IMG/VR virus record: IMGVR_UViG_3300018080_000171
Source of the DNA: a virus
Reading direction: 5' to 3' (one strand)
DNA length: 64,000 bases
Shown here: positions 6,650 to 6,950 of the stretch, one piece after another
Numbering within the stretch: the first letter of the stretch is position 1
Layout: each line of letters opens with the position of its first letter
Position numbers and translations under genes: made by a program
Notes under the pieces: model-generated
Seen by the model: the letters and a program-made list of their open reading frames with translations, nothing else
Told to the model about the DNA's origin: nothing
Databases searched by the model: none

Positions 6650-6725
6650 TAAGGGTTGCCAGATTGTTGGTTATCGCTATTCGGAAGCAGTAGTGTAGGT
6701 TCGAATCCTACTCTCTCGATTTAGT
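6650..6725 (+). ncRNA. tRNA-like 3' element (T-arm plus 3' acceptor strand TCTCTCG) with the conserved 5' motif GGGTTG..AGATTGTTGGTTATCG; paralogue A
   Basis: Perfect T-arm GTAGG-TTCGAAT-CCTAC, but no upstream partner for the acceptor strand. The 5' part is conserved with the 8136 and 9561 copies. Confidence 0.3.
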
Positions 6726-6743
6726 ATTTTTTCACCGAGAGAT

Positions 6744-6790
6744 AGTGTAATGGCAGCACGCTTAAAAACTTCAACTTTCACCTTTTCATC
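6744..6790 (+). ncRNA. tRNA 5'-half-like element (acceptor CGAGAGA, D-arm GTGT-AATGGCA-GCAC, then CTTAAAAAC...)
   Basis: CGAGAGA is the exact complement of the upstream 3' strand TCTCTCG, which gives a permuted 3'-half/5'-half order. It is followed by an intron-like core. Confidence 0.3.
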
Positions 6791-6950
6791 TTTACAAATT
6801 TTTGATTATAAATAGGGATGTTGGCTTAGAAGCAGCCATCATTTAAAGAGTAGTTTGCACTTAGCGAAGAAATGACGGACGGTAACAGTCCTATCTAAGT
6901 AGCGAGGATAAATGTGGAACTTTTGGCGTAATAGCACACCTATTATTATA
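6790..6950 (+). ncRNA. possible group I intron-like catalytic core (degenerate)
   Basis: Contains TGACGGAC-GGTAAC-AGTCCTA-T-CTAAGT. This resembles the P7/P3/P9.0 core of Tetrahymena-type group I introns (GACGGAC...GUCCUAAGUC), plus several hairpins. Confidence 0.3.

Follow-up and report, generated by a model that had tools for sequence, protein, structure and literature searches.

A structured RNA mimicking the GTPase-associated centre of 23S rRNA in a phage tRNA array

In a viral sequence of 64,000 nucleotides (nt) (IMG/VR record IMGVR_UViG_3300018080_000171; the whole stretch analysed is referred to as the window) we found a structured RNA, encoded at positions 6808-6949, that mimics the GTPase-associated centre (GAC) of 23S ribosomal RNA (rRNA), i.e. 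helices 43 and 44 with the site bound by ribosomal protein uL11 and thiostrepton. The element lies in a 320-nt gap (6632-6951), here called the locus, between the transfer RNA (tRNA) genes for tRNA-Asp and tRNA-Tyr. This block is an accessory cassette of the phage tRNA array and has two parts: DNA derived from tRNA-Arg(UCG) and, in the ~140 nt before tRNA-Tyr, the GAC mimic, which the initial annotation of this DNA had overlooked and which is the principal feature of the locus. The explanation that we favour for both parts jointly, with somewhat more confidence than doubt, is a stable uL11-binding GAC-mimic noncoding RNA (ncRNA), serving as sponge or platform, next to permuted tRNA-Arg(UCG) debris. 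The GAC-mimic RNA represents a widespread and apparently undescribed phage RNA family.

The GAC mimic upstream of tRNA-Tyr

A search of 6560-7060 with Infernal cmscan gave a local match of 6811-6867 to Rfam LSU_rRNA_bacteria on helices 43/44 (28.2 bits, E 8e-7). By blastn against the E. coli 23S rRNA gene rrlH, 6816-6849 were identical to 1055-1088 at 34/34 positions and 6926-6939 to 1091-1104 at 13/14, with a 76-nt stretch of the window taking the place of A1089-A1090. The 23S-like similarity was confined to these two segments, and the Rfam match spanned model positions 1091-1152 only. AUAGG (6812-6816) pairs with CCUAU (6939-6943), matching the 1051-1055/1104-1108 pairing in 23S rRNA. The element hence contains hairpins for both helix 43 and helix 44, each with its conserved loop, and a terminal closing helix. 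Covariance model R1, described below, matched the window once, at 6808-6949, over its full length (model positions 1-90; 78.8 bits, E 2.5e-18). The parts of the element are as follows.

6808-6949, + strand: whole GAC-mimic RNA, mimicking the end of helix 42 and helices 43 and 44 (R1; local Rfam LSU match)
6808-6816, + strand: 5' strand of closing helix P1, equivalent of the end of helix 42, G1055 = 6816 (pairs with 6939-6949; 9 pairs covary in the family)
6818-6847, + strand: helix 43 equivalent (1057-1081) and 1082-1086 turn, A1067 = 6828 (blastn against rrlH)
6848-6851, + strand: junction GAGU (23S 1087-1090), a family-specific signature (alignment A1)
6852-6921, + strand: insert domain of 70 nt, absent from rRNA (4 base-helix pairs covary across the family)
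6922-6939, + strand: UUUG junction, then helix 44 equivalent and ACAC (1101-1104) (second blastn segment)
6939-6949, + strand: 3' strand of P1, ending 2 nt before tRNA-Tyr (R1)

P1 has six contiguous pairs in the window (6811-6816 with 6939-6944). The helix 44 equivalent runs from G1091 (6926) to C1100 (6935) with the loop GUAAUA (A1095 = 6930) and is followed by the family-specific A1101. The insert is closed by the base helix AGUU (6852-6855)/AACU (6918-6921). From the window sequence alone, inner helices CAC (6858-6860)/GUG (6914-6916) and UUAG (6861-6864)/CUAA (6895-6898) and a hairpin GGAC (6877-6880)/GUCC (6888-6891) were predicted; comparative support within the insert fold is confined to the base helix.

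The initial annotation had compared strings in this region with the P7/P3/P9.0 strands of group I introns and suggested an intron-containing tRNA or a permuted intron-exon arrangement. The strings are present (TGACGGAC at 6873-6880, GGTAAC at 6881-6886, AGTCCTA at 6887-6893 and CTAAGT at 6895-6900), and all of them fall inside the insert domain of the covarying GAC-mimic RNA. Their likeness to intron motifs (GACGGAC, GUCCUA, CUAAGU) is short, was spotted by eye and has no statistical support. With permissive filters, cmscan of the 501 nt at 6560-7060 returned no Intron_gpI (RF00028) match at E<=10, the outcome that the initial annotation itself had named as speaking against an intron, and Rfam gave no Intron_gpI match at the gathering score in the whole window. 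Nor are there rejoinable exons around the supposed intron: a 5' tRNA fragment ends at G26 (6760) and is followed by the GAC-mimic RNA and then by tRNA-Tyr, which is a complete gene and not a 3' exon. Like group I introns in tRNA genes, the locus sits among clustered tRNAs and has some short strings rich in purines, but it shows neither a covariance-model match nor the exon context. We rejected a group I intron on the cmscan result and consider even a degenerate one next to impossible.

Covariation and variable positions

The secondary structure of the GAC-mimic family is shown by covariation. Alignment A1, from which R1 was built, comprised the gap-free core of 57 sequences with each insert replaced by GAAA. 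Over the 22 proposed pairs, 93.3% of cells were paired compared to 65.9% in shuffles, and the covariation score of 0.691 (0.165 in shuffles) was reached by 0/500 shuffles. Double changes occurred at 16 of the 22 pairs, and when partners were slid by 1-3 columns as a control, pairing fell to 30-51%. All nine P1 pairs and all four pairs of the insert base helix covaried, neither helix having been used in choosing the sequences, and so did 1057:1081, 1058:1080 and 1082:1086. An independent set selected through helix 44 showed compensatory changes of A1062-U1076 and A1064-U1074. Position 1061 varied freely in this set, several members carrying U1061A, an exchange known to stabilise the GAC fold (PMC1802607).

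The nucleotides of the GAC tertiary fold (U1060, A1088, G1071/C1072 with G1091-C1100/C1092-G1099, and 1082:1086) were invariant or covarying in A1, and in the window they were, like those of the uL11 interface, all identical to E. coli. This conservation of known tertiary-contact nucleotides suggests that the mimic adopts the tertiary fold of the GAC. A1095 was conserved in 87/88 members, with a helix 44 loop of the form G-U-A-R-N-A.

Inserts always leave at the same junction, between 1090 and 1091, and measure about 40 to 335 nt. Several modules recur among them: GCGAAAUG-like in 32/88, CACCCC-N5-8-GGUAAGG in 25/88, AAAAUGYGGA in 13/88, and GAUGUGC in 9. Examples bearing modules are L008, L057, L059 and the window (6865-6876 and 6906-6919), whose insert contains a variant of AAAAUGYGGA. 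The CACCCC-N5-8-GGUAAGG module holds a 3-bp hairpin for which covariation was seen by eye (G-U, G-C and U-A closing UAAC, GAAA or GAGA). About 13 members (L010, L019, L033, L034, L047, L055, L057, L058, L074, L086, L088, L095, L103) had a second insertion in helix 43, formed by a 20-90-nt hairpin that follows A1077 immediately and precedes UC..UAAAGAGU. Short-word blastn of the inserts against E. coli 23S, 16S and 5S rRNA, in search of further rRNA mimicry such as the sarcin-ricin loop, gave nothing recurrent beyond 8-10-mers. A pattern search for relatives with the window's own insert found chance matches in coding DNA only.

Distribution of the family

We scanned IMG/VR for the exact helix 43 19-mer GTTGGCTTAGAAGCAGCCA and obtained at least 120 contigs, of which, among the matches listed, only L100, L111 and L117 aligned to 23S rRNA beyond the GAC. 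Together with five loci of cultured phages and the window, the listed contigs gave 126 core matches, 113 of which were followed by a helix 44-like string. One architecture, with an insert of at least 40 nt, was common to at least 108 loci, most of them on phage contigs and with 88 distinct inserts: P1 5' strand - GGNN - GUUGGCUUAGAAGCAGCCA - N'UC..UAAAGAGU - insert (about 40-335 nt) - UUUG - GCGUAAYAGC - ACAC - P1 3' strand. The window element shows the same order on the strand of the tRNAs (P1, GGNN, helix 43, UAAAGAGU, insert helix, UUUG, GCGUAAYAGC, ACAC, P1'), and its R1 score is in the range of 65-80 bits found for family members with short inserts. Whole elements measure ~110-420 nt across the family and ~140 nt in the window.

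Three features distinguish the family from rRNA: GAGU at 1087-1090, the UUUG junction and A1101 (87/88). They are also found in elements of gamma-proteobacterial phages, whereas E. coli rRNA has GAAA and U1101. Since these phage elements keep signatures absent from the rRNA of their hosts, the GAC-mimic elements form a lineage of their own and do not result from repeated captures of host rDNA. For the same reasons we consider it very improbable that the window element is a functionless piece of a host's 23S rRNA gene, brought in by illegitimate recombination or by assembly chimerism. The 34 rRNA-identical nt, and the contaminating rRNA in some small 'phage' database records, would fit such an origin, but the similarity ends at the borders of the GAC, the signatures and the insert are absent from rRNA whatever the host, the flanking helices covary heavily, and the strand is shared with all tRNAs. 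Moreover, cultured phages with finished genomes carry the element, and the same contig came from independent samples (ENA sample ERZ27256796, 99.99% identical, and part of it in SRR6963352).

Among cultured phages, the element occupies unannotated gaps in Cronobacter phage GAP32, Xanthomonas phage XacN1 (beside a 2'-5' RNA ligase gene), Aeromonas phage 4_4572 (before tRNA-Met) and Pseudomonas phage pf16 (between tRNA-Asn and tRNA-Pro). Further BLAST matches were to Pectobacterium phage CBB, Serratia phage BF, Yersinia phage fHe-Yen9-04, several Erwinia phages, a Vibrio jumbo phage, Xanthomonas phages XaC1 and XbC2, and Pseudomonas phages Milchi, Astolliot and UNO-G1W1. A scan of prokaryotes (one genome from each of 185,579 species) with the family-specific helix 44 string gave 41 occurrences, mostly in contigs of metagenome-assembled genomes (MAGs) or likely prophages, and 25 of the 41 had the helix 43 part upstream. 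One MAG contig (L145, Candidatus Limenecus sp.) had two R1 matches ~1.1 kb apart (3995-4082 and 5203-5289), and some genomes may thus carry two copies.

Isolated copies of 23S 1046-1109, ~65 nt long and without insert, were found in three phage loci (L044 ~4352-4417, L097 ~1756-1821, L114 ~3120-3190). They are 89-91% identical to 23S rRNA, have the rRNA-type GCUCAC and a closing helix of their own, are followed by a small open reading frame (ORF), and constitute a minimal version of the mimic. A different case is Paenibacillus phage Pd_22F (L128, 83977-84012), which has a contiguous rRNA-typical stretch, AAAGAGUGCGUAAUAGCUCACUGG, within 1.7 kb devoid of annotation. In contrast to the mimic family, this stretch could be a genuine piece of 23S rRNA or an artefact of assembly.

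At the gathering score, no Rfam 15 family (including GOLLD, ROOL and transfer-messenger RNA, tmRNA) covered the element in the window or in 15 member loci; the matches were tRNAs only in the window and tRNA, tmRNA and one twister in the member loci. No phage GAC mimic was described in the full-text literature searched, sequence strings included, with subscription-only literature and figures outside its reach. The motif-discovery papers of the Weinberg/Breaker line made no mention of the element, and full-text searches for its strings turned up only papers on rRNA/L11 biophysics.

Genomic context and possible biogenesis

Around the at least 108 loci, ARAGORN placed 538 tRNAs on the strand of the element and 0 on the opposite strand. 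Among the loci listed, 56/108 elements had a tRNA within 300 nt. Many tRNAs were only 6-21 nt from the GAC core (G1055 or C1104) and hence directly adjoined P1. In the window, 2 nt separate the end of P1 (6949) from the start of tRNA-Tyr (6952-7033), in agreement with the initial annotation, which had this tRNA start right after the segment. No promoter-like or terminator-like site was predicted on the + strand between 5596 and 7610. The simplest reading is that the GAC-mimic RNA is co-transcribed with the tRNAs and released by tRNA-processing enzymes. RNase P and the enzymes that process tRNA 3' ends would excise it from the tRNA transcript, and the RNase P site of tRNA-Tyr, between 6951 and 6952, would set its 3' end flush with P1.

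Clustering of the ORFs within 4 kb of the at least 108 loci revealed no consistently adjacent protein family; the largest cluster covered 11/108 loci and one lineage. In some loci tmRNA genes were near the element. A twister ribozyme of type P5, which at 38 bits barely exceeded the gathering score, and tmRNA genes were located on the same strand 1-5 kb from some elements (L055 12687-12763 and 13276-13663; L022 853-1296; L027).

The tRNA-Arg-derived part of the locus

The remaining features of the locus and its flanking tRNA genes are the following.

6558-6631, + strand: tRNA-Asp(GTC), upstream neighbour in the array (ARAGORN; Rfam tRNA, 63.2 bits)
6647-6720, + strand: tRNA-Arg(TCG)-like, sub-threshold (ARAGORN at -ps80 only; Rfam tRNA-Sec, 14.7 bits, E 4.8)
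6674-6719, + strand: canonical 3' two-thirds of tRNA-Arg(UCG) (sequence; ARAGORN drawing)
6720-6735, + strand: 16-nt spacer, which would be the loop closing a 7-bp acceptor-stem hairpin (minimum free energy fold)
6736-6760, + strand: 5' third of the same tRNA, with CGAGAGA, U8A9 (6743-6744), D-arm with A14, G18G19 and A21, and G26 (6760)
6761-6807, + strand: A+U-rich linker (minimum free energy fold)
6952-7033, + strand: complete tRNA-Tyr(GTA) gene (ARAGORN; Rfam tRNA, 50 bits)

The initial annotation had recognized here the 3' part of a tRNA followed by its 5' part, and this order was borne out. The T-arm GTAGG-TTCGAAT-CCTAC (6695-6711), the 3' acceptor strand TCTCTCG (6712-6718) and the discriminator A6719 are present, as are the D-arm GTGT-AATGGCA-GCAC (6745-6759) and CTTAAAAAC (6761-6769). 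The exact complement CGAGAGA does follow after a 16-nt spacer, but starts at 6736 (6736-6742) and not at 6744, 8 nt away from the position first given. When 6736-6760 was joined to 667x-6719, ARAGORN called a tRNA-Arg(TCG) at default stringency with seven junction offsets. The tRNA pieces are more than a chance likeness. The 3' acceptor strand had also been said to lack an upstream partner, which is correct in part: with its stringency relaxed, ARAGORN does give a poor full-length tRNA-Arg(TCG) fold for 6647-6720, but the acceptor stem is mismatched. The 5' third of this fold (6647-6673) is poor, its D-loop lacking GG, and the 3' two-thirds are canonical, with an anticodon arm at 6674-6690 (anticodon TCG 6681-6683, one C.A mismatch) and a variable region at 6691-6694. 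The 21-nt T-arm and acceptor segment also occurs in ordinary tRNA-Tyr/Arg genes of other phages.

In the syntenic relative L130 (~75% identical) tRNA-Asp and tRNA-Tyr are 60 nt apart and the whole 320-nt block is missing; neither the tRNA pieces nor the GAC mimic were found within 20.7 kb of this contig. The block is therefore an indel cassette, and the comparison cannot support a functional permuted tRNA. Because the relative lacks the block, the permuted tRNA-Arg(UCG) material is most likely a rearrangement relic, the fallback that the initial annotation had offered and still the best reading of the tRNA-derived part. Region 6647-6760 (3' two-thirds, 16-nt spacer, 5' third) would have arisen from duplication and deletion in the array, and would at most supply tRNA-like processing sites upstream of the GAC-mimic RNA. 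Tandem tRNA copies occur in L130, and sub-threshold tRNA debris is common beside other family members. Orphan T-arm and acceptor segments without a callable tRNA were also seen in other phage contigs (L174 ~2878-2898, a 394-kb viral contig; upstream flanks of L011/L023, L033 and L106). Several of them lie just upstream of GAC-mimic elements and one is identical to that of the window over 21 nt.

A functional permuted or two-piece tRNA-Arg(UCG), its 16-nt loop excised by RNase P and 3' processing and its pieces paired or ligated, or a closed module working with the GAC mimic, is in our view improbable. The acceptor stem pairs at 7/7 positions, U8, A14, G18G19, A21 and the T-loop are intact, the rejoined sequence passes the ARAGORN default threshold, and the window has no other tRNA-Arg(UCG). 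Two-piece tmRNAs and permuted tRNA genes exist elsewhere. Here, however, the tRNA breaks at position 26/27, with no anticodon arm after G26 and undefined ends, and the anticodon stem carries the C.A mismatch. A possible helix between the outer ends (6788-6799 with 6645-6656, 12 bp including G.U) would enclose the tRNA module but is weak, being matched by 42/2000 dinucleotide shuffles (2.1%), and the predicted fold of the region as a whole is not more stable than those of shuffles (z = 0.29). No bulge-helix-bulge motif was found at the outer ends of the pieces. The block is missing from the relative, a second example was not found, with 0 matches in IMG/VR to other copies of the exact D-arm string of the 5' fragment, and the frequent debris beside other family members likewise speaks for a relic. 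No bacterial or phage pathway is known to join such tRNA halves, and the splicing endonuclease is not known from bacteria.

Possible functions of the GAC mimic

The isolated 58-60-nt GAC RNA folds alone and binds the C-terminal domain of uL11, contacting it through nucleotides 1058-1060, 1062-1065, 1075-1083 and 1088, and thiostrepton and other thiopeptides bind at A1067 and A1095 (PMC1802607). The window has every one of these nucleotides in unaltered form, and therefore we ranked uL11 binding, as a sponge or platform, first. Region 6808-6949 would encode a stable ncRNA in which P1 replaces the helix 42 end. The turn and helix 43 are rRNA-identical, helix 44 is near-identical, and an extra lineage-variable domain branches off between nucleotides 1090 and 1091. 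Such an RNA should bind the ligands of the free GAC, most probably uL11, and might divert uL11 or uL11-dependent factors (RelA, translational GTPases) from host ribosomes during infection. Both the binding and its physiological effect are proposed here from the nucleotide sequence.

Several points weigh against this proposal. A sponge would have tens of thousands of ribosomes as competitors, its benefit to the phage is doubtful, and the cassette is dispensable, as its absence from the close relative L130 indicates. The rebuilt junction (UUUG, A1101, extra helix) could alter the tertiary fold or protein binding, and the actual function may reside in conserved insert modules, e.g. CACCCC-N5-8-GGUAAGG. 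That 1059-1077 hardly vary in the main set is due in part to its collection through helix 43; in ~4/25 unbiased members of the helix 44-selected set A1067 was replaced by G. Positions 1096 and 1097 were the most variable loop positions in the family.

Alternatively, the RNA may be a decoy or competitive inhibitor that offers the helix 43/44 surface to a host defence, a competitor's toxin or thiopeptides and so spares the ribosomes needed by the phage, a possibility that we consider unlikely. The element is located in tRNA arrays, and phage tRNA arrays are thought to counter tRNA-targeting defences. The GAC is indeed a target of antibiotics (thiopeptides at A1067/A1095, PMC1802607) and of a toxin, Tre23, which ADP-ribosylates helix 44 within nucleotides 1095-1098 (PMC8661411), and rRNA-cleaving anti-phage systems exist (retron Kva2 preprint). 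The near-invariant A1095 would fit a decoy, but the two most variable loop positions lie inside the Tre23 target window and A1067 is not invariant. Damaged rRNA could not be replaced by a decoy, which would be a poor answer to a catalytic toxin, and our literature searches did not retrieve any GAC-targeting anti-phage system.

We judge a scaffold to be just as unlikely as a decoy. Here the GAC fold, probably clamped by uL11, would be a stable, nuclease-resistant handle and the variable insert would carry the real function, such as binding of a factor or an RNA. The constant junction, the covarying base helix, the wide range of insert lengths, the modules recurring across lineages and the second insertion after A1077 in some members are in line with this. 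On the other hand, no insert module is universal, the copies in L044, L097 and L114 have no insert at all, and exposed loop nucleotides that mere folding does not need (A1095, and mostly A1067) are conserved.

Returning to uL11 binding, we put forward a broader idea, tentatively and with more doubt than belief: free GAC replicas encoded with tRNAs in many phage lineages might form a class of host-takeover RNAs that sequester uL11 or factors depending on it, or that protect against immunity directed at the GAC. If true, phages would have RNA-level control of the stringent response or of the translation-factor cycle. In the window, the adjacent closed permuted tRNA-like module might even dock on the GAC mimic like the elbow of an A/T-state tRNA, mimicking the ribosomal factor-binding site.

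The window and its tRNA array

The window is phage-like, with every long ORF on the + strand and few family matches. ARAGORN predicted 32 tRNA genes in an array at 5184-15804, from which tRNA-Gly is missing, and its tmRNA search found neither a tmRNA nor a permuted tmRNA in the window. No further rRNA-like pieces were found in this array. The locus contains no ORF longer than 47 amino acids, and since those present overlap the RNAs, a protein-coding explanation was rejected. A close relative of the window was not found in INPHARED, blastn of the locus returned tRNA matches only, and an IMG/VR protein scan for close relatives was empty.

Other parts of the array also deviate from standard tRNA genes. 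tRNA-Val(CAC) (5789-5878, 90 nt) and tRNA-Asn(GTT) (6056-6148, 93 nt) have variable regions of ~20 nt, unusual for their anticodons; the long tRNA-Asn is kept in L130 (13830-13918, 89 nt). A gene-less gap of ~250 nt between tRNA-Gln and tRNA-Ile (6226-6477) is 78-88% conserved with L130 13921-14292, where ARAGORN reported a 'tRNA-???' with a 2-nt anticodon (13987-14061). This gap may hold another non-standard tRNA or ncRNA. Elsewhere the window encodes a PARP-like ADP-ribosyltransferase (PF00644, 2.8e-25, plus PARP_reg; 22829-24136), directly followed by a LAGLIDADG homing endonuclease (24202-25017). As the PARP-clade toxin Tre23 ADP-ribosylates the GAC, this enzyme is noteworthy, the link being conjectural.

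Significance

If the proposed mimicry holds, this would be the first known case of a viral RNA imitating one of the functional centres of rRNA, and molecular mimicry would extend past tRNA-like structures and protein mimics. The family comprises at least 108 loci, including well-known cultured jumbo and T4-like phages, covaries strongly and is absent from Rfam, and is therefore ready for curation and testing. It offers a handle on the investment of large phages in translation-related RNAs, on uL11/RelA biology in infection and on unexplained ncRNAs of phage tRNA arrays. In practice, an isolated 23S-like match in a phage genome should not be written off as contaminating DNA. The annotation of the locus is corrected in that it has no group I intron and its permuted tRNA is probably debris.

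Comparison with known systems

Permuted tRNA genes (Cyanidioschyzon merolae) and two-piece tmRNAs (alpha-proteobacteria) resemble the tRNA-derived part in having the 3' part upstream on one strand and a formable acceptor stem. They are conserved and have defined processing (splicing endonuclease and ligase together with a bulge-helix-bulge, or maturation as two stable pieces), whereas the window locus shows no bulge-helix-bulge, conservation or known enzymology and is lacking in the relative.

Leaders of ribosomal protein operons (L1, L10(L12)4, S15, L20) are likewise extraribosomal RNAs imitating the rRNA site of a ribosomal protein, with binding proposed in the case of the mimic. They are cis-acting 5' untranslated regions of bacterial operons with limited sequence similarity to rRNA and established binding. 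The mimic, in contrast, is phage-borne, tRNA-flanked, near-identical to rRNA and without an associated ribosomal protein gene. The motif-discovery and mechanism papers checked contained no uL11-type leader.

The species 1/2 RNAs of phage T4 (rnaC and rnaD, from the T4 annotation) and GOLLD and ROOL, whose association with tRNAs has been remarked upon (PMC5737381), are like the mimic structured or stable RNAs beside tRNAs, without an assigned function and thought to be co-transcribed or co-processed. They have no sequence or structure relation to it, and rnaC and rnaD were rejected as distant members as R1 had no significant match in the T4 tRNA region. T4 rnaC (L173 2909-3047) ends in a tRNA-like T-arm and acceptor, CCGGGTTCGAATCCCGG, and has two GAGUAGCG repeats; AGUAGCGAGG in the insert of the window was compared with these repeats and is probably a coincidence.

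The closest counterpart is the GAC of 23S rRNA itself (helices 42-44, nucleotides 1051-1108, a 58-mer). The mimic differs from it as a stand-alone RNA in phage tRNA arrays, outside any rRNA, with an extra helix or domain between 1090 and 1091, the UUUG junction and A1101. Its P1 is free to vary in sequence, and the mimic therefore has no kink-turn 42 or uL10 site. Shared by both are a helix 43 and 1082-1086 turn identical to E. coli, a near-identical helix 44, a closing helix at the place of 1051-1056/1103-1108, and the conserved nucleotides of the tertiary contacts and of the uL11 interface.

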